Shown: in pieces, positions 29,188-63,429 of the stretch
Position numbering within the stretch: the first letter of the stretch is position 1
How the letters are laid out: each line of letters opens with the position of its first letter
NCBI GenBank assembly: GCA_964016885.1
Contig: OZ024742.1
Coordinates: 129,704,001-129,768,000 of the forward strand
Direction: 5' to 3'
Length of the DNA stretch: 64,000 nt
Source of the DNA: Eledone cirrhosa
Taxonomy: Eukaryota
Notes under the pieces: generated by a model
What the model was told of the DNA's origin: nothing
The model's input: the letters and a program-made list of their open reading frames with translations, nothing else
The model's database searches: none
Translations under genes and position numbers: made by a program

Positions 29188-32100
29188 TCATACATAAACA
29201 CTGATCAAAATAACTTAAATGATATATATATATATATGTGTTTCTCCCTGAATATATATATCAGCTTCCCGATGATTTCTCACGAATGAAACAGTTCTAG
29301 TCCTGGAGAAGCTCTTCTATATTAAAACTTTTATACTCTGCTATGTATTGAGTACTTTACTTCCTGTGGTTACCTCCGATTCAACCCGATATATATATAA
29401 AGATTGAGAGAGTGAAGCAAGCGAGATGAAAGGCTTTAAAAAGAAAAACAATATACATGTGCAGAGGAAGTTTCTTAGTATAAGCAAATCTTAAAATGCT
29501 GAGTGTCAGTCAAAATAAGATCGACATTGCAAACACAAGCAGAAAGTCTTGTTCATTTTAGATATACATTATGATAGAGGAATTTTTAGTCGTAGAGTAG
29601 AGTGACAAAACAGCCTCATTTATTGTATTTTGTTCTTGTTTTCTCTGACAAGAAATACACAAGTTAATAATAATAATAATGTTATAAGATAACAAAAATA
29701 CACACCATATCGAATATGAGGAGCAAAAGAAGATAAATTTCTAACTAACATCGACGTTTCTTCTAAAACACTACGTTTTTGTTTTCTACCATTTTATAAT
29801 TGTATACTTATTTTATTTTCCTGAAATCAACTTTTTTTTATTCCATGTTATGAAATAAAATTCCAAATAAATCAATTCACAGTTGTATAAATAACATTAC
29901 AAATATTGATGGAAATATGAAAGAAAAAGAAATGATAAAAACAAAAGGAAGCAACGAAGAGAGGGTGGAGGGATAAAGAAGGGCAGATCTGACTGTATAG
30001 GTAAATAGGAGAAAGGGTTCCAACATAGATATTAAAATTAATCATCATTATTCCTCCTAATCTACTGAACAGAAACCGAACAAGGGTTACAGGGCCGAGT
30101 TTTTAGGTGATTTGCAAAATAATCTAGTTCAGCAGCTTTATGTTCCACTTTCAACCGTTATCCGCAAGTGGTAGTGGGTTGAAATATATAATAGCAATAT
30201 ACGTTCGTCAATTATAAACATCAAACACTTGTGAAAGAAAGAAAAAAAAAATGAATGTGTATATATATTTTAAATCTATATATATATATATATATATACT
30301 ATATAAGATGTAACAAAATAGATGTAGTATATTTATGCGCGTGTGTGTGTGTGTGGCAATGGCTATGTGGTTAAGAAGTTCGCTTTGCAAGCATGTGGTT
30401 CTGGGTTCATTCCCGCTGCACGGCACTTCGGGCAAATGTCTACTATAGCATTGGATTGACCAATACTTTTTTTTCGTGGAATTAAGTAGACGGAAAATAC
30501 AGTGTGCTTGAATGAGAGTATATTTATTTCCTGTAACTTTGCGGTTCGACAAGAAAAGATCAATAAAATAAGTCACAGACTTGAAAAAAAGTACTGGAAT
30601 CAATATGATGGACTAAATCAAGGCGGTGCCCCTGCATGACCGCAATCTAAACCCAGTAAAAGAATAAAAGAATATATAAGCACTAATTCCTTCTCACTGC
30701 GCAAAGTGGTACCAGAGGATGTTGCTTGTCATGAGTCAAATAGTATTCTTACTCACAGACTTTCATCTTCCCACTTCCAAAATGGTCAGCAGTAATTAAA
30801 AACAATAAAATTTGAGTGAGAAATCTTTTTTCTTAATGCTAAATTATCATTTTCGAAAAATTATATTTATGAACATAGTTCCGGACAGAAGAAATATTAG
30901 GAATCTGGGTGGAGATAGACTAGAGTTATTTTAAACGATGTTACTCTTGTAAACCGATTTCTGCCCCCACCCCTTTTTTTCAGGTTCTTTTTGCTTATAT
31001 AAATAAAATGTTTTCATGATTAATTTTATTGGACGCAAGCATTATATATTTCTTCTAGAACAAGTATGGAATTATGAGCGAAGTTGGATATATATAAATA
31101 TATATAATTATTTTTTTAAATTCGAAACAAGAGTTAAAGATATAGCTTTATAGAAATGAATTTTACAGAAGTAAAACTGTTTGATTCTTCATTTCTATAT
31201 AAAATAAAGATGCTTATACTATATGAACGTATTGAATACTTAAACTGTGGTCACTTCCCAACCACCTTCGGGAATCCACCCTTTGTGGACGTTCAGCAAC
31301 TTTCTCATTAATTCTCGTGAGTATTTTTGTATATCCAGCGATATATGGTATGTTTACGAATATATATATAGAGAGTCTATGGAAGGCTAACAGTTACCCA
31401 TAAATGCAGGTCTATCCTTCCCAAGCCACCGATATTGTTTAAGAGATATGCAGGACCGATGAAGCTTGACACCAGTGTCATCGCAAACATACACACACAC
31501 ATATATATATATACACACACACAACGAAACAGTTCTAGTCCTGTAGAAGTCATTTCTATATAAAACAAAGATGTATATACTCTACCAATGTCTTGAGTAC
31601 TATTCTAACTGTGGTCGCCTCCCGATACACATCGGGAATCCCCCATAATTGTATACATTTAATCGTTTAACGTCCGCTTTCCATGTCTGCACACACACTT
31701 TATATATATCATACATCGGCTTATTTTGTTATCTCCCTACATCTATTTACCTCAGCATCTGTGTCTCCGCCTGTCGTCCCAGTTAACTAAGCCCTCGGCT
31801 CACATATCAGAAAAAAATATATCTACGATTTCTCCAAATGATGAATTATTTCGTTTAATAAAATATTTGTCTAAAATGTCGAGTTTTTCTCCCCCACCTT
31901 TTTTTAGGAGGTGAGGGCCTAATTCTGTGCGAAATAAATATATATAAATCTGTTATTTTTCTCAAAGTTAACAGAGAATACAACTGAAAGCAGACACAAT
32001 TACAAATAAAGAAGGCGAGACAGGGAAGAGAATTAGATATATGGTGTTGGAGGTGGACATAACGATGGAGAGAATAATAAATAAACAACTGATCATGGGT

Positions 32101-32235
32101 GAAATAGTTCGATTGGTGTAGGGCAATAGATTAATATATAGATAAATGAAAGTATGGATAGATCGATGGATAGATATAACAACTTATACAGGAATATATT
32201 GAAATGGTTTAGATTTAAAATTTATAATTACTTAC

Positions 32236-32831
32236 TTTCTCTTGCGTTTCGATCTTTCCACTTTATCAAGGGCTTTCTCAACACATTCAGTTAGTTCCGT
32301 CCAGTCAGCATGTAGTCCACAAGCCCATCCAGTGGAAAAACGGCTAAACAACCAGTTCTTGTCAGAATGTGTTAAACAGTGACATCGCTTCCTTTTGGGG
32401 GCACACTCACAAGGTCTATCAACAACCAAATTCCTAACGAGGTGCCGACCGAAACTAGAACCACCAGTCTTTTGAATGTGCAGAAACACAATAACATCTT
32501 CCTTTTCCATATCCAACTGGAAATTTCTTCGAAGATCTGAGATGGAGAAGTTGTAAGTGTCCAACGGTAAGTGAATAATGTCACTACTCATATTAACATT
32601 ACTCACGGTGTTGTTGATAATGCGGTGAAGTAAGGCGACAGGAGGGGAATTATGTTGTAATATAAGAGTCTGGGCGCCGAAAAAACGACTCGGTGTGAAA
32701 TTGGACGGTCCTAAATAACCAAAAACGATAATGCCAAATAACACCATACATACTGTAAAGACGAATAATTTCCTGCACTTAATCGGTTGACTTGGAATAA
32801 AATTCATGTAGTTCAGATGCCGCAATGGCAT
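32236..32831 (-). CDS. HS6ST: Heparan-sulfate 6-O-sulfotransferase, first coding exon, copy 1
   Basis: ATG at 32831 (MPLRHLN); type II TM segment; DVIVFLHIQKTGGSSFGRHLVRN (5'-PSB); C-x-C...C-x-C; WLFSRFSTGWACGLHADWTELTECV. Ends AGA AA|GTAAGT, a phase-2 donor just before the expected FYYITxLR segment. Confidence 0.93.
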
Positions 32832-33514
32832 TTTACTTATGCTTCCGAGTCCTTTGCCTTCTCTATTTGTCACAATCTCTCTCCCTTTCTCTTATACACA
32901 CATACGTGATCTTTTCCTCTCAATCTCTCCTCTAGAAGTCCGAGGAAGAGATGAGAAAATATAATATACATACACACAACGCACTCATACACCAAATGAA
33001 ACTCGTTCTGAAGTCTTTCGAGGTATTCGTTTTCAAAAGAACCGTGAAAAATAATAAGATCGCAAGTACTTAAGGAACTTTTAAATAGGCGTAAGTTAGA
33101 AAAACAATAACCTGATATACTGAAAACATGAAGCACTGGGGAATATTAGAGACAACGATATTTCAACAGTGGTCCTCCAGCAGTTGCGATTTTATCTTCC
33201 AGTGTTAGTAATATGATGATGGTGGAGATGATACATAGAAGTGTTCTTCTGCCTCATCCTCTCCTTCTTTATTATTCTCTTTTCATCTCAGTAAGCTGAA
33301 ATCCACATTCTTTCCGTGTGTTCGTTTGCCGAGGCAAAATGTCCATATCTCGTCAGATTAAATCGGTTGTTTGTTCAGCGACCTTCTGCTGCGAGACACT
33401 TTAAGAATAAGAAGTACTCAGGCTGTGGAAGAAATATGAGTATTTCGTCATCAGTTTCTGGGTACATAAGTACGCTATACTTCACACGCGAGAGAGAAAC
33501 ATTGACGCTTTCAT

Positions 33515-33770
33515 TCATTCGTATTGGCTGTGTGTATATACTCCCACTCGCCTCACGCTCTCTCATTCCCTCCTTTGTCTTTCTCTCTTTCTCTATTTAC
33601 ATCCACTTTCGTTCTTCTTGTTTCTCTCAACTCAGTTACTTCCTCTCATCACCATCATTCACAGAATTATTTTTTACGATTGATTGGCTGGTTAATGCTG
33701 TTTTGCTTTTATCGTTAGTCACTACTCCGGGTCCCAAATAATAGGGAGTGGGGAATAAGCGGTGGGTTGG
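33515..33770 (-). promoter_or_regulatory. Putative promoter of HS6ST exon copy 1 (CCAAT boxes)
   Basis: AGCCAATCA on the - strand at 33681-33689 and a second CAGCCAAT at about 33523-33530; G-rich box near 33745-33770; conserved in copy 2. The TSS is not determined. Confidence 0.4.
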
Positions 33771-35094
33771 AAAATCGATAATTTTTCTGGGTTGTCTCCC
33801 TTGATTTTTTAAAAACCAGAATTAGATGTTTAGCTTACATATTGAAACTCCAACCCATCCTATTTATTTTATAACGTATAGCATTTCTTGTAATGTTCTT
33901 TTTTGTCATATATCTTTTAGAAAACCAATTTACGCAGGCATGCTACCACTTAAAATAAAATTTTGCTGGAGATAGATTAGCAAAATTTAATAAGTGGTGG
34001 CGGTGAATAAAAACGGGGGAATCTGAAAAATTAATTAGCGGGGACGTCGATTATTCGAGACCCAAGAGTACATACATGCATACACATGTACACATATACA
34101 TACACGCGCCCGTATGCACATACACACACATTAAAGCAGAGATTTGGTTCAGTACAAATAATTATTAAGTACATTTTTTTTCATTTTTTATACAAATATT
34201 TATAAATTTATCTGTATGCGTGTGTTATCATCATCATTTCATTTTACGTCCGCTTTTTCCCTGCTTGCAAGGGTATGTATATATTTCTATATAAGTGACC
34301 CAACAACGTAATAGTGGCAGTGTGTCAGCTGAGTTACCCACAGCGGTGGCAGGGCCAGATTTAATGGCACCAAAGGAAGCAATTGCCCCACCACTGACAG
34401 CCATAGCAATTTATTTGTACCCTCTGCTGGGCTTTTTATCCTTTTGTCAACAACTATATTTAAAAACAAAAAAGTATTTAATGGCCTTACTGTGGAAATT
34501 CATCAAATTTTCTCAACTTTAGAAACATCAGATTATCAGAGCAATATTCAAAACAAAAAGTACTTGATGGTCGCATCAAAATTTTTCTACATAAGTGACA
34601 TCAGATGTGGCATTGTGCATGTGTCTGTACATGCATTTGTGTACGTGTCTGTTTTCCCGAGTGTTAGCAGACAATTTGCCAAAGATAATGGACAAATTCG
34701 GATTTCTATATTTCTCTTTCTCTCTTTTCTACCACAGTCAATTATATGCTGGTATCACAAAAACAATGCACCGAGTAAACACTCTAAATAGGTTATGTTA
34801 AGAAGGGCATGCAGCCATAGAAACTATGCCAAATATGTAATGTATGAGCAAGACGAAGTCGCTCCGATATGTCTAGTCTTGGACTTTGACAATCTATTTA
34901 ATACAAGCCAGTGTGGAAAGTGGATGTAAAATGAGGCTGGTTAGATTTTTTTGAATTTAATACCTGTATCTCTAACTTTACAATTCCAATTACTTGCACC
35001 AAGCCAACTTTGATATGTAAAATTAGGAGTTTGCCATGTATTCTAATTTTTTTGTGTATCAACCCCCCAATGTCTAAATCCACCTTGAGTTTTA

Positions 35095-35745
35095 GTGGCA
35101 GTGTGTCATCTGAGTTACCCACAGTGGGGGGAAGGTCTGTATCTCAGCTGAGTTACCCACAGTGATGATGATGGTGGTGGCAGTGCGTCATCTGAGTTAC
35201 CCACAGTGGGGGGAAGGTCTGTATCTCAGCTGAGTTACCCACAGTGATGATGATGGTGGTGGCAGTGTGTCATCTGAGTTACCCACAGTGGGGGGAAGGT
35301 CTGTATCTCAGCTGAGTTACCCACAGTGATGATGATGGTGGTGGCAGTGCGTCATCTGAGTTACCCACAGTGGTGGTGGTGATGGCAGCGGTGCTGGTGG
35401 CAGTGTATCATCTGAGTTACCCACAGTGGTGGTGGTGGAAGTGTGTCATCTGACTTACCCACAGTGGGGTGGGGGGAGGTGGGGGCTGTATCTCAGCTGA
35501 GTTACCCACAGTGATGGTGGTGGTGGCAGTGCATCATCTGAGTTACCCACAGTGGGGGGGGGAGTCTGTATCTCAGCTGAGCTATCCAGTGGTGGTGGTG
35601 GTGGTAGTGGCAGTGTGTCATCTGAGTTACCCACAGTGAGGAGGAGGTCTGTATCTCAGCTGAGTTACCCACAGTGATGGTGGTGGTGGCAGTGCATCAT
35701 CTGAGTTACCCAAAGTGGAGGGAGGGGGCAGTGTGTCAGCTGTGA
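35095..35745. repeat. G-rich minisatellite with core CTGAGTTACCCACAGTG and an 82-bp dimeric higher-order unit
   Basis: About 15 cores; period 82 bp at 35099, 35181, 35263 and 35345; a single related unit at about 34315-34345. Confidence 0.92.
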
Positions 35746-36344
35746 GACCCATCGTGGGTGGGTGGGAGTGTCAATCTGTCTGTGGGATAAAATGAGCATA
35801 TGGAGGACTGCCTCCACCTACCAGTATACTCCCGACACCCTCCTACTTTTCTCCACCCTAAACCAGAATAAGCAGAGAAATGGTACAACATTCAGATTCA
35901 ATATGACAGTATATTCTCCTACCCACTTTCCTCCCCAGAGAATACTGGCAGTTCATGCTGTAAAGTGGTTGATGTTATGAAGGGAATCCAGCCATAGAAT
36001 CCCAAAAAATAAAAATTAAAACAGAGCATGCAAGCAGGATGTAATCACCTGACCTGTCTAACTTCTTGCATGTATGGAAAATAGGAAAATAAACTTTTAA
36101 CGGTGGGCACTTGGCTTAGTGATTAGAGAGTTGGATTCTCAATTGTGCGGTTGCGAGTTCAATTCTCGGACCGGGCAATGTGTTATGTCCTTGAACAAGA
36201 CATTATATTTCACATTGCTCTTTCTGCCAAGAGTTGCAACCAGCAGATAGTATCAGCAATGAAAACTTTGTTTCTTGTCCGATTGGACAAGTTCCACCCC
36301 ACACAGTAAGTGAATGAGGTCTGGGGTCTTGTTGATTGTTAAAA

Positions 36345-36560
36345 AAGCAAAAGTGTTGTGCCCACAATGTAATGTGGTCATGTAGGTGTCACAGCAAAAG
36401 TGCCGTGCCCACACTGTAAAGTGGTCATGTAGGTGTCACAGCAAAAGTGCCGTGCCCACACTGTAAAGTGGTCATGTAGGTGTCACAGCAAAAGTGCCGT
36501 GCCCACACTGTAAAGTGGTCATGTAGGTGTCATGGCAAAAAGTACCCAGTACTCACTGTA
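36345..36560. repeat. 47-bp tandem repeat
   Basis: TGTAGGTGTCACAGCAAAAGTGCCGTGCCCACACTGTAAAGTGGTCA x about 4. Confidence 0.9.
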
Positions 36561-36964
36561 AATGAGGTTGGTGCTAAGGGTATCCAGGTGTAGAACCCAA
36601 GCCAAAATCGGTTCTCTGTGAGCAATGCTAGGTCAACTGACCTAGCATTGTACACAACAGGATAACTCATCTAACCCATGCCAGCATGAAGAAATGGACA
36701 TTAAACGGTGATGATGATGATATATATATATATATATTTTTTTAAAGCCGGTACAATGCGGTAGAAAATACAAAGGGCAAATGATGACAAATGAAACAAA
36801 ACAAAACAAAATGTTTTATTCAATGTATTTTAGCAAGATATTTCAGGGTTATTACCCTCTTTTCAGATGTGAAGCTGAAACAGTCCAAGACAAAACAAAA
36901 AACAATCAGTTTTCAAAGTTTTCTTCCCTAAACTATCTATATGTTTGAAAAACACATGCATGGT

Positions 36965-37507
36965 CTAGGTCTCCTCTCATTTGTGTGGAAGAAAGGACAA
37001 AATTCAGATCCTAATTTTATATAAATGATATTCTGGAACTTATGCCTGTTTCTGCAACTAATCATTGTGGACCTTCCAACAGGATGGAGCCACCTCCCAT
37101 AAAACAAATGTCACACAAGCATGGTAAAGAGACCATCTTCTGAGGTTTTGGTCAAAAGAAATGTGGCTTCCCTGTTCACTTGATTTGAACCCTATGGACT
37201 TTTCAGTATGGTCTATCCTTGAAGAAAAAGCCTGTTTAAAAGTCCATAAGACAGTCAATGATTTAAAGACATCTTTACTGAGTGTTTGGAAAGAAATTCC
37301 CCAAGAAGTGTTGCGTGCTTCAGTGAAAGATGTTCGACGGAGGTTAGAAGATGTTATTGCTGCACGAGGGGGTCATTTTGAATAAATCCTATACATAATA
37401 TTCTGAAGATATTTAAGTATTATTACATATATGTTCCCAGTCAATAAAGTTATTAGTTCTGTTATTAAAAGCATTTTTATTTACTTCCAAACGTATGCCC
37501 CACCCAG
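36965..37507 (+). mobile_element. maT/DD37D (Tc1/mariner superfamily) transposon, 3' half with right TIR
   Basis: QQDGATSH...WLPCSLDLNPMD with 37 residues between the 2nd and 3rd Asp (one in-frame stop); GGHFE* end; TIR CTTCCAAACGTATGCCCCACCCAG followed by TA. Confidence 0.88.
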
Positions 37508-39052
37508 TACATCACAGTTGTGGAACTTCCTTACCTATTATTATACAACCATGACTTCATAACTCTTCTCGCTCCCTAAACATGCTATGAGACAAAACAT
37601 TCTTCTTCTCTAACCTCCCCATAGGACATAGAAGGCTCTTCAATTGAATCCATGACTAACAAACTTTTGATTGCTGGAACCAGGGTAAAATGTACCACGT
37701 GCACTCTGAAAAGTGGCTGGTGTTAGGAAGAGTATTCTGCTGTTAAAACCCCACCAAAAGGTTTGAGAGGACTCTTCTGTTACATCATGAATACAACAAT
37801 CTCTCTAGTACTGGTGCCACAGAAAATGCACCTGTAAAGTGGTTGGCATTAAAAAGGGCATCCGGCTGTAGAAAACTTGCCAAACAAAACGTTGAGAGGC
37901 CCCCTTCAGTTGTGTCAGGGGCATGAAAACCTTACTAGTACTGGTGCCATGATAACATGCACCCATTACACTTGGTAAAATTGATGGTGATAAGAAAGGC
38001 ATCCAGTTATAGAAAACTTGCCAAATTATGGTTGGAAGGACTCTTCAGTTGTGCCATAGATATGACAATGTGCTTAGTGTTTGAGATCATGATTAATGCA
38101 CTCAGTACACTCTAAACACACACAATGCACATCTTTAATTGTGTTAAGGGCACAACATTCTCTCTAGGGTGGGTGATACAATAAAACACACTGAATACAC
38201 TGTGTAAGGCCGTTGGTGATAGGAAGAGTATCCAGCAGTAGAAAACTTGCCAAACAAAGGGCAGAGAGGACTCTTCAGCTGTGTCAAAAATATGACAAAC
38301 TCTCTAGTGCTGGTGCCAAATACATGGTGTACTCTGTAAAGCACATGGAAAATATGTGAGTTGAAGCCCCTAGCCTATCAGTGAGATCATTGGCTTCGAT
38401 TAAGTAGTGACTTAGTCTATGATGACCTAGCCAACCCTTGATAGCAGAGAAAGTGGATGTTAAATGATGATGATAATATATAAAACATAGATCAGCTTAT
38501 TACATTATGTCTCTACATCTATTTACCTCATCTATGTCTATCCACATGTCGTCCCAATTAACTAAGCTGTGAAATCACATCAGATGAAGGAGGCTATTTT
38601 CTACATAAAAAAGCCAAAAATCATTTACAACTATTTCTTCAAATGAAGAATTACTTTGTTTAATAAAATATTTGTCTAAAAGGCCGAGTTTTTTTTACTA
38701 AATCTGCACGAATTAAATAAATATTAAAATACGAATGAATCAGTTATTTTTCTCAAAGTTAGCAGAGAATAGAGCTGAAAGCAGACTCCATCCTCACCCT
38801 AACCAGATAGTTACAATTACAAATAAAGAAGGCGAGACAGGGAAGAGAATTAGATATATGGTGTTGGAGGTGGACATAACGATGGAGAGAATAATAAATA
38901 AACAACTGATCATGAGTGAAATAGTTTGATTGGTGTAGGGCAATAGATTAATATATAGATAAATGAAAGTATGGATAGATCGATGGATAGATATAACAAC
39001 TTATACAGGAATATATTGAAATGGTTTAGATTTAAAATTTATAATTACTTAC

Positions 39053-39657
39053 TTTCTCTTGCGTTTCGATCTTTCCACTTTATCAAGGGTTTTCTCAACA
39101 CATTCAGTTAGTTCCGTCCAGTCAGCATGTAGTCCACAAGCCCATCCAGTGGAAAAACGGCTAAACAACCAGTTCTTGTCAGAATGTGTTAAACAGTGAC
39201 ATCGCTTCCTTTTGGGGGCACACTCACAAGGTCTATCAACAACCAAATTCCTAACGAGGTGCCGACCAAAGGTAGAACCACCAGTCTTTTGAATGTGCAG
39301 AAACACAATAACATCTTCCTTTTCCATATCCAACTGGAAATTTCTTCGAAGATCTGAGATGGACAAGTTGTAAGTGTCCAACGGTAAGTGAATAATGTCA
39401 CTACTCATATTAACATTACTCACGGTGTTGTTGATAATGTGGTGAAGTAAGGCGACAGGAGGGGAATTATGTTGTAATATAAGAGTCTGGGCGCCGAAAA
39501 AACGACTCGGTATGAAATTGGACGGTCCTAAGGGACTGAAATAACCTAAAACGATAATGCCAGATAACACCATACATACTGTAAAGACGAATAATTTCCT
39601 GCACTTAATCGGTTGACTTGGAATAAAATTCATGTCGTTCAGATGCCGCAATGGCAT
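39053..39657 (-). CDS. HS6ST: Heparan-sulfate 6-O-sulfotransferase, first coding exon, copy 2
   Basis: ATG at 39657; same motifs as copy 1 but with KTGGSTF and a 3-aa FSP insertion; identical phase-2 GTAAGT donor. Confidence 0.92.
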
Positions 39658-40344
39658 TTTACTTATGCTTCCGAGTCCTTTGCCTTCTCTATTTGTCACA
39701 ATCTCTCTCCCTTTCACTTATACACACATACGTGATCTTTTCCTCTCAATCTCTCCTCTAGAAGTCCGAGGAAGAGATGAGAAAATATAATATACATACA
39801 CACAACGCACTCATACACCAAATGAAACTCGTTCTGAAGTCTTTCGAGGTATTCGTTTTCAAAAGAACCGTGAAAAATAATAAGATCGCAAGTACTTAAG
39901 GAACTTTTAAATAGGCGTAAGTTAGAAAAACAATAACCTGATATACTGAAAACATGAAGCACTGGGGAATATTAGAGACAACGATATTTCAACAGTGGTC
40001 CTCCAGCAGTTGCGATTTTATCTTCCAGTGTTAGTAATATGATGATGGTGGAGATGATACATAGAAGTGTTCTTCTGCCTCATCCTCTCCTTCTTTATTA
40101 TTCTCTTTTCATCTCAGTAAGCTGAAATCCACATTCTTTCCGTGTGTTCGTTTGCCGAGGCAAAATGTCCATATCTCGTCAGATTAAATCGGTTGTTTGT
40201 TCAGCGACCTTCTGCTGCGAGACACTTTAAGAATAAGAAGTACTCAGGCTGCGGAAGAAATATGAGTATTTCGTCATCAGTTTCTGGGTACATAAGTACG
40301 CTATACTTCACACACGAGAGAGAAACATTGACGCTTTCATTCAT

Positions 40345-40575
40345 TCGTATTGGCTGTGTGTATATACTCCCACTCGCCTCACGCTCTCTCATTCCCTCCT
40401 TTGTCTTTCTCTATTTACATCCACTTTCGTTCTTCTTGTTTCTCTCAACTCAGTTACTTCCTCTCATCATCATCATTCACAGAATTATTTTTTACGATTG
40501 ATTGGCTGGTTAATGCTGTTTTGCTTTTATCGTTAGTCACTACTCCGGGTCCCAAATAATAGGGAGTGGGTTGGA
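40345..40575 (-). promoter_or_regulatory. Putative promoter of HS6ST exon copy 2
   Basis: Near-identical duplicate of 33515-33770; AGCCAATCA on the - strand at 40499-40507. Confidence 0.38.
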
Positions 40576-41520
40576 AAATCGATAATTTTTTCTGTGTTGT
40601 CTCCCTTGATTTTTAAAAACCATAATTAGTCGTTTAGTTTACATATTGCGACCCCAACCTATTTATTTTATAACGTATAGCATTTCTTGTAATGTTCTTT
40701 TTTGTCATATATCTTTTAGAAAACCAATTTACGCAGAAATGCTACCACTTAAAATAAAATTTTGCTGGAGATAGATTAGCAAAATTTAATAAGTGGTGGG
40801 GGATCTGAAAAATTAATAAGCGGGGACGACGATTATTCGAGACCCAAGAGTACATACATGCATACACATGTACACATATACACACACACATTAAAGCAAA
40901 GATTTGGTTCAGTACAAATAATTATTTAACAAGCAATCAGTTTTCAAAGTTTTCTTCCCTAACTCATCTATGTAACCATTCTACAGTAACCATTCTGCCG
41001 CAAGCATTTCTGACCTATTATTTATCTCTGGTTTTATACGGTTGATACAAATGTTGTGCTGGTGAAGTCATGCCTACCATGCTTATGAAGTGACTTGATC
41101 TGACTCATCTCCGTTTCCTTCCACATGCACACTCACCATCCACTATCACCCTATAGTAGCTACCCTCACTATATCACCACACACCCCATATTTCCATGCC
41201 TCCCCCCACACTATCATCCTACACCCCTGTACTGGCTATTTTCAATATCACTATACCCTCAACATTACTCCATGATCACTTCCACCCATTTTATATCCTA
41301 CCCCTGACCCCAATATCAAGGATCATCCTCCCTCTCTCAACTAACACAGGGTCACCCCTTTCCCCCTAAAATCTGACATACCAGTCATAAGCCTTTAGTA
41401 GTAGTTATCATAAAAGTACTTCCTACACTGAAATTCAGCCCCCCCCCCCCCTCCACACATCACCCTGTCAAATCCCACTACCAAACCACATTTTTGTAAT
41501 ATAGCTTAATATTTTCATTA

Positions 41521-41920
41521 AGTAGTGGATTGGCAGTATCGGTAGAGGGTCGGACGTCATGCTTTGCAGCGAAGAGTTACGGCCCTTTATAGTCTGAGTT
41601 CAAATCCCGCCAAGGTTAACTTTGCCTTTCATCCTTACGGGGGTCGATAAAATAAAGTACCAGTAATACACTGGAATAATTGCTGGCCTTGTGCCGAAAG
41701 TAGAAACAATTATTAAGTGGTGGATTGACAGTATCAGAAGAGCATCAAACAACATGCTTTGCAGCATAAAGTTATGTTCCTTTACATTCTGAGTTCAAAT
41801 TCTGCCGAAGTTAGCTTTGCCTTTCATCCTTATGGAGTTAATAAAATAGAGTCCAGTTAGAAACTGGGATCGATTTAATCGATTTTCCCCTCCCAAAAAA
41901 TTGTTGGCCAGAAACCATTA
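41521..41920 (+). mobile_element. Two tandem SINE family A copies
   Basis: Heads TGGATTGGCAGTATCGGTAGAG, B-box GAGTTCAAATCCC, same central domain and tail. Confidence 0.85.
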
Positions 41921-42230
41921 TTAAGCTGATATTAAACATAATTTAACATAAGATTACAATGAAAAGTATATATTATATTTTCCATTGTAATCTTGTTAAA
42001 TTATGTTTCAATTATCAGCTTAACAATTGTTTCTACTTTTGGCACAAGGCCAGCAATTACCAGTGCATTACTGGTACTTTATTTTATTGATTATCCTTAC
42101 TTTGTCGATAAAATAGAGTACCAGTAATGCACTGGTAATTGCTGGCCCTGTGCCAAAAGTAGAAACAATTATTAAGCTGATAATTGAAACACAATTTAAC
42201 ATAAGATTACAATGGAAAATATAATATATA
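41921..42230. repeat. Nested long inverted repeat
   Basis: Arms about 41967-42090 and 42105-42230 are near-perfect reverse complements; 41921-41965 is a further inverted copy of the outer part. Confidence 0.9.
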
Positions 42231-43218
42231 CAGAGTGGGGCATAACTTTGGAAGCAAACTTTTGAAATTTGATATCTAAACGTGTTGTAAGTATATCATT
42301 AATCTTCTTTCATTTTCTGGTTAATACATTAGTCTATGTAAACATATTGGACCTTGTTTGGATTTCTTAAAGAATTTGAAAATGTCATCAATAGAGAAAT
42401 GATACTCAAACTTCATTGCACAGAAGAAATCCCAAAAGGTCCATGAGAATGGCAAAAGAGGTCTGAGTAAGCCCTAGGACAATGAAAGGGATCATCAATG
42501 ATGACTTGGGAATGTCGTCCTTCACCCTTTAGAAGAGACAAACCCTTTCTGAAAAGACAAAACAAAAAGAAGCTAGAGAGAAGCAAGAATTTGCTTAAAG
42601 AAATGAAATGTGGCATGGCGGGAGAAATTGTCTGGTCAGATGAAAAAATTATCACTGTTGAGCAGACACACAACCAAAGAAATGATCAAGTCATTGAAAA
42701 ATAAGAATAAGCAATCAGTGTTGACCAAAAAATCTGTATTTCATACAATGAAACCAGCTTCTGTTATTGTCTAGGGGGCTGTTTCATCATCTTGGAGGTC
42801 TCTCCTCATTTTTGTGGAAGAAAAGACAAAAAACCGGCTCCCAATCTTACATAAATGTTATTCTGGAACTTATGCCAGTTTCTGGAACTAATCATTGTGG
42901 ACCTTCCAACAGGATGGAGCCACATCCCATAAAACAAATGTCACACAAGCTTGGTAAAGAGACCATCTTCTGAAGTTTTGGTCAAAAGAAATGTGGCTTC
43001 CCTGTTCACTTGATTTGAACCCTATAGAATTTTCAGTATGGCCTATCCTTGAAGAAAAAGCCTGTTCAAAAGTCCATAAGACAGTCGATGATTTAAAGAC
43101 ATCTTTACTGAGTGTTTGGAAAGAAATTCCCCAAGAAGTGTTGCGTGCTTCAGTGAAAGATGTTCGACGGCAGTTAGAGGATATTATTGCTGCACGAGGA
43201 GGTCATTTTGAATAAATC
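42231..43218 (+). mobile_element. maT/DD37D transposon (left TIR plus decayed transposase), interrupted by an LTR element; resumes 48688-48752
   Basis: TA then TIR CAGAGTGGGGCATAACTTTGGAAG (20/24 match to the right TIR at 37484-37507); IVWSDEKIITVE...NDQV, QQDGA, WLPCSLDLNP, GGHFE*. Confidence 0.88.
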
Positions 43219-43629
43219 TGTAGCACTCTCTAGACAAAGGGAAGTAGCTAGAGTTACTTCCCGTAGAATTTCTAGAATATTCCTTGAACTTCCGTTCCGA
43301 GTATTATAAAAGAAAGAGCAAAGGGCAATCTCCCTCTTTTGGCAGCAGGCTCTTGAACTGACCAAACCAAGCACAGATGTGTTAAGTTTTTCTAATCCTA
43401 TCTTGTATTTCAGGATTACACCATATCATGTCACGAGGTACGTTTTGTTGCTAAATTGTAATACACGCACTACAATAAATACAAGTTGTTATTGATACTC
43501 GTTTTGATATATTCGTCATGCTTCAATTATTACTTCGAATGTAGAGAGATAATTCTAACCAAGAAAAATTAATGGTTGGCATGCAGTGCTATTTACTGGA
43601 GTAAATAATCCTATGACCAATTCACTAAA
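43219..43629 (+). repeat. 5' LTR
   Basis: TGTAG...CTAAA; 10 mismatches to the 3' LTR by manual count. Confidence 0.95.
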
Positions 43630-44063
43630 TTGGTGACCTGACATGATGTGAAAATATTTGATGCAACAGTGGGCATGAATGCAGGCATAAAATACAGAAA
43701 AAAAAAGAAGAGGCAACAACACAGAAAAAAATTGTTCTCAACTCTAGAAAGTTCGTTTTTTTAGTCAGTTCGTGTGGGGCAAACAAAATAAAAAAAAATT
43801 TTTCTTGTTGAAAGCAATACATGAATGACAAAATTGAAGAAGTAAGTCACCATGTTGGCAGCGTGATAATTCACTAAAAGAATTGTCCCTCGTGTCTATG
43901 GATCAAACAAGCTTTCGTTTTTTTTTAAGTCGCCATCTTACTTGCTCGGTGCTATATTTTATTTTACTTAAGTTATTCATGGTACTACCACGTCTGCGGT
44001 AGTTGAAAAAAAAAACAAAAAAAAAACGACAAAGAAATTCTCGCTCAGCGTCTATGGTGTTAA

Positions 44064-47000
44064 TCATGAGCAATTCTTCGTTACCGGCATTTTCTGGTGA
44101 TGCCAGATTGTGGTTTGCTCAACTGGACTCGTATTTTGCTGCCCACGGTGTTCAAGCAGCACAACAGAGATTACACGTGCTTATCAGTGGAATTCCTGCT
44201 TCGCTGGCAACCTCAGTTAAAGACATAATTACAGATCCTTCACAAGGCACATCTTACGAAACCCTAAAGGCAGAAGTGCTCAGACGGAACAGCCGTTAGT
44301 CTGAGAGTAGATTTCGTTCCTTGTTGGAAGAGGAAAATCTGGGTGACAGAACTCCGTCTCAATTTTTACGGCGTATCCGCGAACTGAGCGACTCAACAGC
44401 AGAGGACAATTCCTTCGTAAAACAGCTATTCTTCTCCCGTTTGCCAACAAATGTGCAGACCATATTGGCGAATATGGTCGACACCAGTTCTTTGGAACAG
44501 ATTGCGGCCTCGGCGGACCGCATTATGGAATTTTCCTGAGAGCCTACTTCGGCAGATTCGGTCGTCGCTTCTTCTGCTTTTAAAACCCAGCCTGCTTCAC
44601 CTCGTGAGGACTCAATGTTGAGAGCCATTGATACGTTAACTCGTCAAGTAGCTAAACTTCATGAAGTCGGTCTCCTTCTTTTCATCGTCACGCCATATTC
44701 CCCGCCAACAACTCGTCTTTGTGTTGGTATCACATGCGTTTTCGTGAAAAGGCGAAACATTGTATTCAGACCTGCTCTTTCGGGGCCTCGGAAAACTAAA
44801 ATTGGAGAGTCTTGGCACGGCAGACCTCTCCCTCAATAATTCACCTAATCGTACTTTCTTCATCAGAGACCGAGTCTCAAACAGGTCATTTATGGTGGAC
44901 ACAGGGTCTAGTTGCAGTATTTGGCCTTTATGGTTCAGCTCTACCAAGCCAAATTTTTCCGGCATTTCTTTATATGCAGTGAACCAGTCTCCGATCAAAA
45001 CCTATGGTCAAATATCTTTATCGTTGGACTTAGCTTTGCGTCGAGATTTTAAACGGATTTTCGTCATTGCGGACCTACCTCATCCTATTCTCGGTGCCGA
45101 TTTTTTACACCATTATTCACTTTTGGTAGATGTCAGGAAACAGAAACTTGTGGATGGTACCACATCTTTATCTACGCCTGCTCGTAGGTCTACTGCTGCT
45201 GTTGTCAGTCCCTCGTGTTTTGTAGTTGCCTCTGGAAACCAGTTTCATTCACTTCTTGCCTCGTTTCCCGAGTTAACGGACATCTCATTTAAACCTAATC
45301 AGGTAGTCCACTCGACTACAACTGGCCCGCCTGTTTTCTCTCGTCCACGAAGGTTGGCTCCAGATAGACTAAAGAAAGCCAGAGATGAGTTCGAGCACAT
45401 GCTTCAGCTCGGTCTTATTCGACCTTCCATCAGCCCATGGGTATCTCCGCTTCACTTGGCTCGAAAGCGGATTTTAGGCCGGTGGGAGATTATCAAAGAC
45501 TTAATGCCATCACTACACCTGATCGTTATCCTTCACTAAATTTACAGGATTTTTCATCCGTTCTGCATGGATGCAAGTTATTTTCTAACATAGATATGGT
45601 ACGGGCTTACCATCAAATACCCATGAATCCAGAAGACATACCAAAAACAGCTGTGACCACCCCCTTTGGTTCATTTGAATTTCTGTCCATGCCTTTTGGT
45701 TTGTGGAATGCCTCTAGCACGTTCCAGCGTTTTATCGATGAAGTCACGCGTGGATTGGATTTTGTGTGGATGACCTCCTGATAGCCAGTGACACAGCTGA
45801 GCACCATCATCAACATCTATCCCAGTTATTTCAACATCTTCAATCGTACCAAGTCAGAATCAACCCAGCTAAATGTGTGTTTGGTACAGCTTCACTGGAA
45901 TTCCTTGGACATCTTATAGATTCGGAAGGCATTCGACCTCTGCCATCTAAGGTGGAAGCAATTCAGCGTATCGCACCCCCCCCCCCTCTCACTGAGACAG
46001 TTACGTCATTTCTTCGGATTAATTAACTTTTATCATCGTTTTATTCCCAACTGTGCTGAAAAGTTATTCCCCTTGACACAGCTGTTAAAGGATGCGAAAA
46101 AGAAAGATACACCCATTGCATTTTCTGCCGATAATTTGCAATCATTTGAATCCGTCAAGTCCGAAATAGCCGAAGCTTCTTTCCTCGCCCATCCTGTTGC
46201 AAACGCGAGGCTTTCTTTAACTGTTGATGCGTCCGATCATGCTGTTGGAGCAGTTTTGCAACATACGATCAACCACTGGCATTTTTCTCATGCCAACTTA
46301 AACCAGTGAAACAGAGATACAGCACCTTTGACAGAGAACTTTTGGCGGTCTATCTTGCCGTGAAGCACTTCCACCATTTTTTGGAAGGGCGGGAGTTCAC
46401 AATATTCATGGACCATGAACCGCTAACATTCGCTCTCCAATCCAAGTCCGACAGGTACTCTTTGAGGGCATATAGGCATTTGGATCTCATCTCCCAGTAC
46501 ACCAGTGACATTGTCATATAGCCGGAGCTGCCAACATACCCGTGGTCGCACTGTCTCGACTTTCTGTGTGTTCTCTTGCGTCTCCTGCACATATCGATTT
46601 GGTTGCCATGGCAACTGACCAACCTACTTTGGATTCGTTGGACATTTCATATGACCAGTTCTCCTGAAAATTGGAATATTTACCTCTTCCATCTTCTGAA
46701 GGGTAAATTCTCTGCGATATTTCTACTGGCTCACCCAGACCACATGTTCCAGATTTCCATCAATGTACCCGTTTTGATGCACTTCATTCCTTGTCGCATC
46801 TCGACATAGCTGCCACGGTGAAGCTCATCATGGCCCGATTTTTCTGGCCTAATATGTGTCGTTTAATCACCAGTTGGGCACGTTCTTGTTTGAAGTGTCA
46901 GCACTCTAAGATTTATTGGCATGTTCACGCTCCTCTTGGTGAATTCAGCCCGCCGGACGCCCATTTCCGTCACATTCACATGGATATTGTTGGTCCTTGG

Positions 47001-47884
47001 CTCGTTAGTCGTGGGTTCACATATATATTGACCTGTATCGATTGTTTCTCTCGGTGGCCTGAAGCCATATCCCTAGTGGACATAACAGCCAAGTCCGTTA
47101 CCCGAGCTTTCATTTCCAGTTGGGTTGCTTGCTTTGGTGTTCCACGGATCGGGGACGCCAGTTCGAGGCTTCCTTATTTTGTGATATATCACGACTTTTG
47201 GGTGCTCATCACATTCATATGATGAGCTATCACCCAGCCTCCAACGGAATGGTGGAGAGGTTTCACAGACAGTTGAAAGCTGCACTCCGCGCTACTCCTG
47301 ATCCGCAATGTTGGACCAAATTTTTGCCAATCGTGCTTCTTGGTTGTCGTTCTGCTGTTAAGACAGATTTGGGTTTCTCCTCAGCTGAACTTCTTTATGG
47401 TACCACCTTGACTCTTCTCGGTCAAATGCTAGCACCGGTTGATTCATCACATCTTGATCCAACATCATATGTCGCCAGGATTCATTTTTACTTCTCGGAT
47501 CTTCCACCAATGAACTCTCGTGAACAGTCTATTTCTTCTGCTGTTCCATTGGATATCTCTACGTGGACACACATTTTTATACAGAATGATTCCGTCAAGG
47601 GACCACTTAAGTCACCCTATAATGGACCTTTTTGTGTGCTTTTGTACACACCAAAAAATTTCACAGTGGCTGTCAATGGTCGAAAAGAGACAATATCCAT
47701 TGACAGAGCAAAGAGGGCTTTCTCTGAAAGTCTCATTACGATGCCTGATACACCTTGTACATTCACTCCCACACCAACACCTTCACCTCCACCGCAAACA
47801 CCACATACCACACAACCTTATGTCACACAAGGTGGCAGAACAGTAAAATGGCCACGTAAATTGTCAAAAACTATATACATTTAA
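44064..47884 (+). pseudogene. Frameshifted gag-pol of the Gypsy element
   Basis: Consecutive ORF fragments give the order gag, PR, RT, RH, IN (Gypsy order). Confidence 0.93.
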
Positions 47885-48272
47885 CCCTTAGTGGCATTAA
47901 CAAACTCTTTTCAGTTTCAGATAGAATTAGTGTCAGAAAAGTCTGTATACTGGTGATGTATGAACTATTTGATTCTGAAGAAACTTTGAACTTACCATTG
48001 AGCATTAATTTTTCTCTGCTCCCTTATGTTAACTTTGAGTTATCAGTTTTGTTACATTTACATTTTTTCTGCATCATCCTTGTGCAGCAAAAAATTTTTT
48101 CTTTGTCAAATGCATTTACTTGTTTTGTGCTTTTTTGCTATTTGCTTCAGTTGCGAGCTAATGTTTTATTCATGCACTTTCTTGTACCTTTCCTTTGCTC
48201 CTCATTTCTTACGGGTTCTCGCTACGATGACCTTCGGTTGGTTATTCGACTTCTCGTCTGAGAGGGGAGTCT

Positions 48273-48683
48273 TGTAGCGCTTTCTAGACAAAGGGAAGTA
48301 GCTAGAGTTACTTCCCGTAGAATTTCTAGAATATTCCTTGAACTTCTGTTCCGGGTATTATAAAAGAAAGAGCAAAGGGCAATCTCCCTCTTTTGGCAGC
48401 AGGCTCTTGAACTGACCAAACCAAGCACAGATGTGTTAAGTTTTTCTAATCCTATCTTGTATTTCAGGATTACACCATATCATGTCACGAGGTACGTTTT
48501 GTTGCCAAATTGTAATACACGCACTACAATAAATACAAGTTGTTATTGATACTCGTTTTGATATATTCGTCATGCTTCAATTATTACTCCGAGTGTAGAG
48601 AGATAATTCTAACCAAGAAAAATTAGTGGTTGGCATGCAGTGGTATTTACTGGAGTAAATAACCCTATGACCAATTCACTAAA
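48273..48683 (+). repeat. 3' LTR
   Basis: Direct repeat of 43219-43629, preceded by the PPT and followed by TSD AATC. Confidence 0.95.
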
Positions 48684-50125
48684 AATCCTATACATAATAT
48701 TCTGAAGATATTTATGTATAATTACATATGTTCCCAGTCAATAAAGTTATTAGAACCATGGTAAAATGTACCACGTGCACTCTGTAAAGTGGCTGGTGTT
48801 AGGAAGAGTATTCTGCTGTTAAAACCCCACCAAAGGTTTGAGAGGACTCTTCTGTTACATCATGAATACAACAATCTCTCTAGTACTGGTGCCACAGAAA
48901 ATGCACCTGTAAAGTGGTTGGCATTAAAAAGGGCATCCAGCTGTAGAAAACTTGCCAAACAAAACGTTGAGAGGCCCCCTTCAGTTGTGTCAGGGGCATG
49001 AAAACCTTACTAGTACTGGTGCCATGATAACATGCACCCATTACACTTGGTAAAATTGATGGTGATAAGGAAGGCATCCAGTTATAGAAAACTTGCCAAA
49101 TTATGGTTGGAAGGACTCTTCAGTTGTGCCATAGATATGACAATGTGCTTAGTGTTTGTGATCATGATTAATGCACCCAGTACACTCTAAACACATACAA
49201 TGCACATCTTTAATTGTGTTAAGGGCACAACATTCTCTCTAGGGTGGGTGATACAATAAAACACACTGAATACACTGTGTAAGGCCATTGGTGATAGGAA
49301 GAGTATCCAGCAGTAGAAAACTTGCCAAACAAAGGGCAGAGAGGACTCTTCAGCTGTGTCAAAAATATGACAAACTCTCTAGTGCTGGTGCCAAATACAT
49401 GGTGTACTCTGTAAAGCACATGGAAAATATGTGAGTTGAGGCCCCTAGCCTATCAGTGAGATCATTGGCTTCGATTAAGTAGTGACTTAGTCTATGAAGA
49501 CCTAGCCAACCCTTGCTAGCAGAGAAAGTGGATGTTAAATGATGATGATAATATATAAAACATAGATCAGCTTATTACATTATCTCTCTACATCTATTTA
49601 CCTCATGTGTCTATCCACATGTCGTCCCAGTTAACTAAGCCGTGAAATCACATCAGATGAAGGAGGCTATTTTCTAAATAAAAAAGCCAAAAATCATTTA
49701 CAACTATTTCTTCAAATGAAGAATTACTTTGTTTAATAAAATATTTGTCTAAAAGGCCGAGTTTTTTTTACTAAATCTGCACAAATGAAATAAATATTAA
49801 AATACGAATGAATCAGGTATTTTTCTCAAAGTTAGCAGAGAATAGAGCTGAAAGCAGACTCCATCCTCACCCTAACCAGATAGTTACAATTACAAATAAA
49901 GAAGGCGAGACAGGGAAGAGAATTAGATATATGGTGTTGGAGGTGGACATAACGATGGAGAGAATAATAAATAAACAACTGATCATGAGTGAAATAGTTT
50001 GATTGGTGTAGGGCAATAGATTAATATATAGATAAATGAAAGTATGGATAGATCGATGGATAGATATAACAACTTATACAGGAATATATTGAAATGGTTT
50101 AGATTTAAAATTTATAATTACTTAC

Positions 50126-50727
50126 TTTCTTTTGCGTTTTGATCCTTCCTCTCTATCAAGGGCTTTCTCAACACATTCAGTTAGTTCCGTCCAGTCAGCA
50201 TGTAGACCACAGCCCCTTTTAATGGAATAACGACTGAACAACCAATGCTTGTTAGAATGTGTTAAACAGTGACATCGGAAACTTTTGGAGGTACACACGC
50301 AAGGTCTATCAACAACCAAATTCCTAACGAGGTGCCGACCGAAACTAGAACCACCAGTCTTTTGAATGTGCAGAAACACAATAACATCTTCCTTTTCCAT
50401 ATCCAACTGGAAATTTCTTCGAAGATCTGAGATGGACAAGTTGTAAGTGTCCAACGGTAAGTGAATAATGTCACTACTCATATTAACATTACTCACGGTG
50501 TTGTTGATAATGCGGTGAAGTAAGGCGACAGGAGATGAATGATATAATATATGACTCTGGGCACCCAAAAAACGACTCGGTATGAAATTGGACTGTCCTA
50601 AGGGACTGAAATAACCAAAAACGATAATGCCAGATAACACCATACATACTGTAAAGACGAATAATTTCCTGCACTTAATCGGTTGACTTGGAATAAAATT
50701 CATGTAGTTCAGATGCCGCAATGGCAT
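50126..50727 (-). CDS. HS6ST: Heparan-sulfate 6-O-sulfotransferase, first coding exon, copy 3 (divergent)
   Basis: ATG at 50727; open frame; HIQKTGG, all Cys and GLHADWTEL retained; CVCTSKSFR and SRYSIKRGC replace CECAPKRKR and SRFSTGWAC; same phase-2 donor. Confidence 0.9.
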
Positions 50728-51492
50728 TTTACTTATGCTTCCGAGTCCTTTGCTTTCTCTATTTGTCACAATCTCTCTCCCTTTCACTTATACACACATA
50801 CGTGATCTTTTCCTCTCAATCTCTCCTCTAGAAGTCCGAGGAAGAGATGAGAAAATATAATATACATACACACAACGCACTCATACACCAAATGAAACTC
50901 GTTCTGAAGTCTTTCGAGGTATTCGTTTTCAAAAGAACCGTGAAAAATAATAAGATCGCAAGTACTTAAGGAACTTTTAAATAGGCGTAAGTTAGAAAAA
51001 CAATAACCTGATATACTGAAAACATGAAGCACTGGGGAATATTAGAGACAACGATATTTCAACAGTGGTCCTCCAGCAGTTGCGATTTTATCTTCCAGTG
51101 TTACAGATGATAGAAATTGTTCTTCTGTGACATCTACTTTCTTATCACCTCCTTTTCTCACAATAGTTCCAGCTGTTTCTCTCTTCCTTCTACCCAGTTA
51201 GCAAATAATGCCTCTTCCTCTCTAATATTTCTTATAGACACAAACACACAAATAAACACACACACAAACAAACACAAACACCAACACAGACTAACACAAA
51301 CAACACACAAACATGTGCACACATCAAGACAAGGATTCAGATCAATTCAAACAGCTAAGTAACTTTGACCATTTGTTAAAGAAATATTTATAAGCCTATA
51401 CAAATATTTACATACGCCTATATTTGTGTGCTTGTGTGTGTGCGTGTGTGCGTATCATGAACATTATTATCATTATTATCATTAATTTGAAG

Positions 51493-51800
51493 GGCGATAG
51501 ATTGGCAGTATCGGTAGAGGATCGGACGCCATGCTTTGACGCATTGAGTTACGGCCCTTGCCATTCTGAGTTCAAATCCCGCCGAGGTTAACTTTGCCTT
51601 TCATCCTTACAGGGTCGATAAAATAAAGTACCAGTAATATACTGGGATAATTACTGGCCTTGTGCCAAAAGTAGAAACAATTATTATCATTAATCCCACT
51701 GAGGTTAACTTTGCCTTTCATCATTAAGGCGTCAATAAAATAAAGTACCAGTAATGCACTGGGATAATTACTGGCCCTGTACCAAAAGTAGAAACAATTA
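51493..51800 (+). mobile_element. SINE family A, full copy plus partial tandem copy
   Basis: Same head, B-box and central domain as the other family A copies. Confidence 0.85.
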
Positions 51801-57869: not shown

Positions 57870-58390
57870 TGGCTCATATTGCTATCACAGTGAATTCCCC
57901 AGCTGAATTGAAGAACAGGGTATTTCCAGACTTAAGTAGTAATTATAATTCACATAAATGGTTGTGTGAAAGGGCAATTCTTGCTCCCAAAAATGTGACA
58001 GTAGCAAGGATTGACCATGAATTAATGAATTAAATAATTAATGAATAAGATTCCAACAGTCATTAAGTACAAATCAGTTTATTCAGTCCTTGATGAAAAT
58101 CAAGCTGTCCATTACCCAACAGAGTTCCTTAATTCTCTTGAGCCACCTGGAACTCCTCCACATAAACTTTTTCTGAAGGTAGGAGTCCCAATAATGCTTC
58201 TAAGAGATTTAGATCCTCCTAAATTAAGCAATGGGACAAGGTTGATTGTGAAGAGATTATCACCTAATGTGATAGAAACTACCATCATCACTGGGTGTGC
58301 CTCTGGGGAAGATGTTTTCATTCCAAGAATTCCAATGAAACCAACAGACACGCTATTTGAGTTCAAACGAACACAATTCCCAGTGCAACT
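57870..58390 (+). mobile_element. Helitron Pif1-like helicase fragment
   Basis: WLCERAILAPKN..., [44 protein letters not shown]...VFIPRIP...FKRTQFPV are classic Helitron RepHel helicase motifs; interrupted by stops. Confidence 0.9.
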
Positions 58391-58689
58391 CCCCAGGTTA
58401 AAACACAGCCAATTTCTTCTTGGGTAAGGAAAGAGAGTGATAGAGAGGAAGTGAGAAATGAGACTCAGGCACACCCAATACACGCTGTAGAGTGGTAGTC
58501 ATAGAAATAATATCAAACATGGGATGCAATGAGCAAGATGAGGTTCCTCCAACATATCTGGCTGTGACAACCTGTCTAACCTATACTAGTATGAAAAGCA
58601 TATATAAAATGATGATGATGATGATGGCAGCTTTAATTTTTTTAAAATTTGATCTATACTTAAGGTGTATTAAATAAAGATGTTTTTCT

Positions 58690-62914: not shown

Positions 62915-63210
62915 TGGCCTCCCCACAGCCCCGGCAGACAGAATGGAGAAGGTGTTTCCCCGGAGGACGGCAAGGGAGACGGGCTGGAAAAGCCATTCCA
63001 GCTCACAAGGCTCACACCTACGGCTGGCCAGCTCAGCACCTATGGTGGTGAGTAGGGAGGTAGCCCCAGGGCCAAGGACACCAGAAGTCTCTACTGCCAA
63101 GGGTACAACCACAAACCTGTCGGAGAGCGACCGGTATGTGAAGAGTTTGGCCTCCTCAGCCCGACGTGCAGCAGAACCTGGGTTAGTTGCAGACTGCACC
63201 AGGTTACAGC
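62915..63210 (-). mobile_element. CRE-clade retrotransposon 3' fragment (same family as 10230-11090)
   Basis: QSATNPGSAARRAEEAKL..YRSLSDRFVVVPLAVETSG...LRGNTF. Confidence 0.85.
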
Positions 63211-63429
63211 TGGAATTGTGGGGTCAGCAGTAGGGAGGCTGTAATGTTTTTGATACAACTGAAGAAGCCTACCAAGGTTACCATACAATATGGAGAAAGA
63301 CAGAAATAGTGAATGTCCCCTGAGAACACTCAGATGATAAGACTTTTATTTTTAACAATAGAGTTCTTTTATCAATATCTGGTCATCTGGTTCTTCCAGC
63401 GTCACAGTAACAGGTCATTATACCCTACT

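Follow-up and report, generated by a model that had tools for sequence, protein, structure and literature searches.

A stretch of 64,000 nucleotides from the genome assembly of the octopod Eledone cirrhosa (GCA_964016885.1, contig OZ024742.1, positions 129,704,001 to 129,768,000 of the forward strand), subsequently called the window, carries the 5' part of a gene of the HS6ST sulfotransferase family, the layout of which is three tandem first exons, designated c1, c2 and c3, before one shared second exon located outside the window. Concerning the use of these exons, it is proposed that transcription probably starts mainly at c1, with c2 likely serving as a further, almost redundant start and c3 likely a silent or weak 6-O-sulfotransferase, a tentative assignment to which a probability of about 0.45 is given. 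Mechanistically, a transcript would start in the leader of one of the units and then be spliced from the phase-2 donor of that unit to the only acceptor, at a distance of 43-61 kb, by analogy with GCNT2 or UGT1.

Layout of the gene

All three first exons are located on the minus strand, with transcription passing first c3 (50126-50727, 602 nt, with an open frame), the copy farthest from the shared exon, then the middle exon c2 (39053-39657, 605 nt) and finally c1 (32236-32831, 596 nt), which is nearest to the shared exon and encodes the anchor, the stem, the 3'-phosphoadenosine-5'-phosphosulfate (PAPS) 5'-loop, the cysteine loop and the CGLHADW motif of the N-terminal half. Each exon starts with its own ATG, encodes a hydrophobic anchor and the HIQKTGG loop, has a length of 2 modulo 3 and ends in AGAAA at the donor GTAAGTAATT. 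The preliminary description of this DNA had reported three intact same-strand copies with a common donor and no C-terminal half in the window, and both statements were confirmed in that the exons are found at these coordinates, no C-terminal exon occurs within the 64 kb and no constant exon lies between the same-strand copies. Its prediction of one shared exon more than 32 kb downstream, beyond position 1, equally proved correct. A family search of the species' own genome identified exon 2 (G000:C3:129692536-129693139, minus strand, 604 coding nt) 11 kb past window position 1, with the acceptor at G000:C3:129693139, 10,861 bases before window position 0. This exon is phase-compatible with all three donors over introns of 43,096 (c1), 49,913 (c2) and 60,986 nt (c3), and the joins lead to stop-free proteins of 399, 402 and 401 amino acids, respectively, which are identical to the Octopus bimaculoides protein XP_052825758.1 at 342/398, 344/401 and 330/400 positions (82-86%). 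The N-terminal half of this O. bimaculoides protein ends at the same residues as c1, c2 and c3, and a T-rich run ends about 113 nt past the stop of exon 2.

The count of exon 2 copies by tblastn that had been proposed along with the prediction gives one copy for the gene. A search of the genome with exon 2 yielded two matches (5/5 candidates scored), exon 2 itself and a 44% identical paralog on C21, and the search with c2 retrieved c1, c2 and c3 together with the first exon of the same paralog (9/9 candidates scored). In the 264 kb around the window, no further first-exon or C-terminal copy was detected, the search with exon 2 by sensitive tblastn and blastn giving one real hit. An own downstream exon for each copy was rejected upon this single match.

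Encoded protein and differences between c1 and c2

The cut-off of the Pfam family Sulfotransfer_2 (PF03567) is exceeded by three of the three first exons, and exon 2 is a Pfam match as well. Aligned to the zebrafish HS6ST3 structure, c2 matches chain 5t03_A (5T03) with an expect value of 2e-38, and its best named relatives are the octopod HS6ST proteins of Octopus vulgaris (88%) and Argonauta (76%). The marks of the family, namely Sulfotransfer_2, the HIQKTGG PAPS loop, the cysteine loop, STGWxCGLHADW and a type II anchor, are present, with the anchor helix of the O. bimaculoides ortholog predicted at residues 18-40 (structure model, predicted local distance difference test score 79.9). From membership in the HS6ST family, the transfer of 6-O-sulfate to C6 of N-sulfoglucosamine is the predicted function of the encoded protein. 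Exact look-up of c1, c2, c3 and exon 2 in the protein collection found 0/4.

Between c1 and c2, eight residue differences and a three-residue indel were observed, and as only two of the 88 residues of the catalytic core differ, near-identical enzymes are expected. The ratio of non-synonymous to synonymous substitution rates (dN/dS) is 1.08, on 10 differences. Near the donor, c1 and c2 differ 38 nt before it, and c3 departs from both 6 and 15 nt before it; c2-private letters are found, for example, at 39090, 39547 and 39636. With near-invariant columns defined by a conservation of 95% or more in 250 of 251 homologous proteins, which gives 45 columns, c1 and c2 each keep 45/45.

The letters GTAA of the donor (32232-32235, 39049-39052 and 50122-50125) provide an in-frame TAA, such that an unspliced transcript would encode an anchored half-enzyme of 199-202 amino acids. 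Exon-only database proteins of related species stop likewise at the TAA of the donor.

Leaders and use of the first exons

The leader and upstream region of c1 (32832-34166, minus strand), a likely promoter, is about 98% identical, indels aside, to that of c2 (39658-40926, minus strand), which is a copy of it, and only two places in the genome, c1 and c2, contain the upstream stretch 33210-33720. At c3, the region is mostly missing. A near-identical leader part (50728-51103, minus strand) with one to two differences from c1 and c2 in 370 nt is followed by a decayed likeness to the c1 upstream DNA (51104-51560, minus strand) at both ends only, where the local scores of 44 and 72 are reached by 0-1 of 500 shuffles, the middle part being matched by 73 of 500. 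Above position -376, c3 holds these two decayed patches and no counterpart of roughly 33290-34050 of c1, and it is likely without most of the putative promoter, where the RNA-covered leader starts. The three copies are not equivalent, with c3 sharing only about 376 nt upstream at high identity and having changed near-invariant residues.

Evidence for transcription comes from the run X4, 88 million letters from a separate sample, the kind of which is unrecorded and which was judged to be RNA-like from its size and its cover of the exon only. The c2 unit served as the sole reference for aligning the runs, and at the likeness threshold of 80% it collects the letters of every copy type. Over the intron bins 38554-39015, X4 has no depth, and its record 25 (1175 nt) aligns to the exon from the exact donor base 39053 onwards, with 723 further letters off the stretch, which are known by number only and in number match the 604 coding nt of exon 2 plus about 113 nt. 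Of 12 covered differences between c1 and c2, X4 is of c1 type at eight, including five of five c1-private sites, and of c2 type at four (three direct, one deduced from the difference count of the contig), the latter letters falling into the codons H73, T129 and F130, which are the residues of all nine octopod comparison sequences. The simplest reading of these contigs would be a c1 allele without two c3-like tracts; as the contigs of the DNA runs merge copies by majority, a mosaic of c1 and c2 might also underlie them.

Apart from a single gap of 75 nt, the shared leader is covered by X4 contigs up to 40205, which is approximately 550 nt above the ATG. A pyrimidine tract with TAG ending 101 nt above the ATG (32932-32956 in c1, minus strand) forms an acceptor-like site that is found in all three copies, and its presence, together with nine upstream ATGs, would suit an organisation in which the copies are internal mutually exclusive exons after a shared upstream non-coding exon. 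This organisation is extremely improbable, as record 26 of X4 crosses the site without a joint up to 39838 with all of its 341 letters aligned, and record 27 covers 39914-40205, DNA that is mostly missing at c3. Leader cover and read-through of the acceptor-like site consequently point to first exons with long leaders rather than to internal exons. The nine upstream ATGs lie within the 548 nt of the RNA-covered leader (39658-40205, same in c1) and may point to translational control.

The assignment of c1 as main start and c2 as second start is favoured by the upstream region retained at c2 and a donor identical to that of c1. It has to be weighed against the use of c1 only, with c2 and c3 either silent or spliced into the leader of the next copy and destroyed, and persisting as leftovers or conversion donors. 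Just a c1-type contig is present in X4, and c3 letters were seen at 0/8 listed c3-specific sites (depth 4-8), which is in agreement with such restricted use, as are the dN/dS of 1.08 between c1 and c2 and the three acceptor-like sites in the leader, each giving an early stop in phase 2 (after 13 codons for the site 101 nt above the ATG, if joined to an upstream donor). Equally, a neutral c3 produced divergent islands in 18/720 simulation runs (see below) at 99% one-way conversion from c3. On the other hand, the leader, 1.3 kb of upstream DNA and the donor of c2 are near-identical to those of the expressed copy, c2 breaks 0/45 conserved columns, and contigs prove presence, not absence. The missing c2 and c3 contigs in X4 are a weak indication because contigs drop rarer variants, and the c3 island does form its own contig in the DNA runs. 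Taken together, exclusive use of c1 is considered possible, if rather unlikely.

Several points speak against the proposed roles of the three exons. Support at the RNA level comes from one run of unrecorded kind with a depth of 4-8, the contigs of which could be a mosaic of c1 and c2 or a c1 allele, and in which neither derived c2 letters nor a c2-specific transcript were seen. For c2, use is predicted from its intact sequence only, and the acceptor-like leader site could route transcripts started at c2 into c1 out of frame. Furthermore, the open frame, the kept cysteines and the restriction of the islands to the coding region argue that c3 is not simply dead. Several isoforms had been foreseen to arise from the alternative first exons; the layout has been substantiated, whereas one c1-type transcript in the RNA-like run stands in place of several isoforms, and several enzyme versions from the locus are possible.

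Divergence of the third copy

While keeping the PAPS loop, the six loop cysteines and the CGLHADW histidine, c3 loses invariant acceptor-side residues, with four of the 45 near-invariant columns broken (K151F, T170I, G171K and W172R in c2 numbering). Among the 197 homologs that cover all 45 columns, 159 break none, 29 one, eight two, one three and none four, in a homolog set that leans towards conserved proteins owing to its collection by shared words. None of 250 homologs deviates at G171 or W172, and K151 is retained in 249. By the alignment with 5t03_A, W172 presumably corresponds to zebrafish W153, a contact of the acceptor sugar, and K151 presumably adjoins zebrafish K132. According to PMC12834895, the latter residue was mutated in the structure study. 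In c3, nature thus offers a variant at positions where change is exceedingly rare.

The differences of c3 are concentrated in two islands on the minus strand, one in the catalytic loops (50131-50299; 18 non-synonymous and eight synonymous differences from c1 in 59 codons) and one in the stem region (50535-50594, with an in-frame 3-nt deletion), and are clustered beyond all shuffles (0/300 and 0/2000). Between c2 and c3, 42 exon differences contrast with one in 590 flanking nt (Fisher p 5e-12). Such a pattern speaks for a full variable-first-exon cluster, in which all copies are used and c3, coding for an enzyme whose acceptor site is altered, is shielded from conversion by selection. Peaks of divergence have been reported as indicative of selection that counteracts conversion (PMC3924837, PMC2588116), with a warning of false positives in the second source. 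Furthermore, c3 has no stop, for which the probability by chance is 19%, and the combination of no stop, six cysteines and the histidine was reached in 0.9% of 20,000 random trials with the residues chosen post hoc; its changes tend to avoid conserved columns (4/28 conserved versus 11/31 other columns, p 0.08), with a dN/dS of 0.55 (p 0.2). In a two-copy simulation with 720 runs per setting, islands of this kind emerged for a neutral c3 in 0 runs when conversion was 50% one-way (unbiased), in 6 when it was 90% and in 18 when it was 99%. The control with five selected c3 sites, however, likewise showed the pattern in 0/720 runs, so that the simulation fails to separate a neutral from a selected c3. 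The use of all copies is judged unlikely, considering that c3 is largely without the upstream DNA in which the leader covered by RNA-like contigs begins, that X4 contains no c3 letters, that the changed residues are nearly or fully invariant among the homologs and that the homolog searches retrieved no protein resembling c3 from other octopods. The island pattern itself hints at selection. As the island has diverged to much the same extent (26/177 nt) as the distal intron, it may alternatively be a remnant of the first duplication that has escaped conversion.

Quite unlikely is the more specific proposition that c3 constitutes a swapped acceptor-binding half (KRKR to KSFR and STGWAC to SIKRGC), shielded from conversion by selection, in an octopod GCNT2-like HS6ST locus of independent origin. 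If true, promoter choice would switch the gene between a normal HS6ST and an enzyme that either acts on a new sugar or has a dampening effect.

History of the array and integrity of the assembly

The spacers, previously thought to hold only repeats and transposable elements, turned out to be colinear duplicates of each other with copied leader, upstream and intron DNA. The c2 unit is a hybrid with c1-type upstream DNA and catalytic loops and a c3-type intron, its 1.3 kb of upstream DNA being shared with c1 and the initial 1.4 kb of its intron with c3; the c2 intron start (37677-39052, minus strand) is 98.4% identical to that of c3 (48753-50125). In the part of the c2 intron shared with c1, approximately 13-14% of the aligned sites differ beyond about 225 nt from the donor; in the distal intron, c1 differs from c2 and c3 at 36/267 and 38/266 sites. 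Divergence is 1.3%, 3.5% and 6.4% in blocks of the spacers, and among the exon flanks of the copies there are 1-4 differences in 590 nt. Located in the c3-c2 spacer, a broken long terminal repeat (LTR) retrotransposon (43219-48683, plus strand) contains pieces of reverse transcriptase, RNase H and integrase in several frames, LTRs of 411 nt with 10 differences (2.4%) and a short target duplication; the corresponding empty site is found in the c2-c1 spacer at about 37387. With nine octopod sequences as reference, derived residues shared by c1 and c3 (Y8, F37, R73, S129) alternate with those shared by c2 and c3 (S32, I49, L98).

The hybrid build of c2 and the colinear spacers would be the trace expected of unequal crossing-over in a two-copy array, and the alternation of shared derived residues would need repeated short gene-conversion tracts. 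The array probably has a history in which an old duplication gave rise to c3 and c1, as reflected in the distal intron with about 14% divergence; unequal crossing-over between c1 and c3 subsequently would have created c2 and doubled the spacer, the blocks of which are now 1.3-6.4% diverged; the LTR element then would have inserted into one of the spacers; and short conversion tracts may keep about 1.2 kb around the exons near-identical, the two c3 islands excepted.

As the hybrid build of c2 is exactly what would result if two haplotypes, each with c3 and c1, had been joined via the near-identical exon, c2 might be an assembly artefact. The DNA-like runs X1-X3 contain c1-, c2- and c3-type letters; they derive, though, from a single sample, and none of the listed pieces extends across the whole stretch. 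Contig depth of the two-copy relative to the three-copy parts amounts to 0.59-0.66 (13.1/22.3, 15.5/25.8, 9.6/14.5, 18/28 and 12.1/18.8), nearer to the 0.67 expected for three copies than to the 0.5 of a false join, contig depth being no copy number. Along with one spacer block diverged by 6.4% and no N letters in the 264 kb, these ratios make an artefact very unlikely, and c1 and c3 would still be a genuine pair. Of the findings that had been named beforehand as contradicting the cluster, own downstream exons of the copies were not found in the 264 kb searched and pure mis-assembly is unlikely.

Apart from the array history, the c2-c1 spacer alone contains a G+C-rich minisatellite (35095-35780) with units of 82-88 nt composed of two halves of about 40 nt. 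Elsewhere in the window, a fragment of Pif1 helicase 2B (58038-58427), probably a Helitron remnant, and two mobile-element-like fragments that are 90% alike (10789-11085 and 62916-63212) were observed.

Comparison with known systems

Two structural features of the variable-first-exon class, tandem same-strand homologous first exons and one phase-compatible constant region, are found at the octopod HS6ST locus. This locus is a candidate member of the class, an invertebrate gene for a Golgi sulfotransferase with a layout resembling that of GCNT2, the use of more than one first exon being only predicted. Like HS6ST, GCNT2 (IGnT) codes for a Golgi type II glycan enzyme and has three tandem first exons with shared constant exons, and each of its first exons specifies, in addition to the membrane anchor, conserved cysteines and a portion of the catalytic domain (PMC1885805). 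In contrast, the GCNT2 exons are old and orthologous across eutherians, with own promoters and separate splicing, little conversion is described for them, and the layout is called vertebrate-specific (PMC1885805). The octopod copies, on the contrary, are young or homogenised, known from one genome and under conversion, with one of them seen in an RNA-like run. Variable first exons spliced to a constant region are equally found in UGT1/UGT2A and the clustered protocadherins, with frequent conversion of the protocadherin exons; unlike the octopod array, these arrays are conserved and established at the RNA level (PMC1885805). Moreover, the variable exon of UGT genes encodes an acceptor domain in full, in contrast to HS6ST, where a single catalytic fold is divided by the intron.

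Among invertebrates, Drosophila hydra resembles the octopod locus in that its exon 1, surrounded by transposons, has recently been duplicated in tandem in one lineage, with only some of the copies, at least four of nine, shown as starts, but is a young orphan gene, while the octopod exon encodes half of an old conserved enzyme (PMC1904467). Divergent coding islands between near-identical flanks of tandem copies have been described for exon 5 of the red and green opsins (PMC3924837, PMC2588116). Both opsin copies are expressed whole genes with known function, whereas c3 is a part-gene known from sequence.

In the protein records, O. vulgaris, O. sinensis, O. bimaculoides and Argonauta have one full-length HS6ST protein each, none of them named as an isoform. 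In line with the preliminary description, which knew of no such HS6ST architecture, no report of this layout or of a cephalopod HS6ST was found among the open-access papers listed, subscription journals being outside the scope. From another octopus, four exon-only HS6ST frames of 202 amino acids (P0124-P0127, on contigs of 1589-1593 nt) vary in the WxCGxH loop (TGWICGL versus TGWMCGV) and at an R/G site that separates c1 and c2 from c3; allelic variation or the merging of copies from a comparable array could account for them, and they give only a hint of an array shared between species.

Vertebrates vary 6-O-sulfation with three HS6ST genes. By 6-O-sulfation of heparan sulfate, the binding of growth factors and chemokines is tuned (PMC12834895). 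If more than one first exon is used in Eledone, isoform variety would arise in an invertebrate by a route so far described for other enzymes of vertebrates. Even with c2 and c3 silent, a cluster would have been caught while being born or decaying, with datable steps.

Further sulfotransferase-like genes

The paralog on C21 (G000:C21:16080467-16083776) is another HS6ST-like gene that has diverged strongly from the main gene, to which it is 44% identical, with the same split into two exons and open frames of 134 and 184 amino acids. In this gene, HIQKTAGKLFDHH replaces HIQKTGGxxFGRH and TSNWICGVHPSW replaces STGWxCGLHADW, and a homolog of its first exon among longer proteins was found for 0/15 candidates at an expect value of 1e-20. 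Ten further matches of Sulfotransfer_2 are distributed over C1, C3, C4, C8, C9 and C15 with open frames of 307-437 amino acids, two of them lying 30 kb apart on C3.

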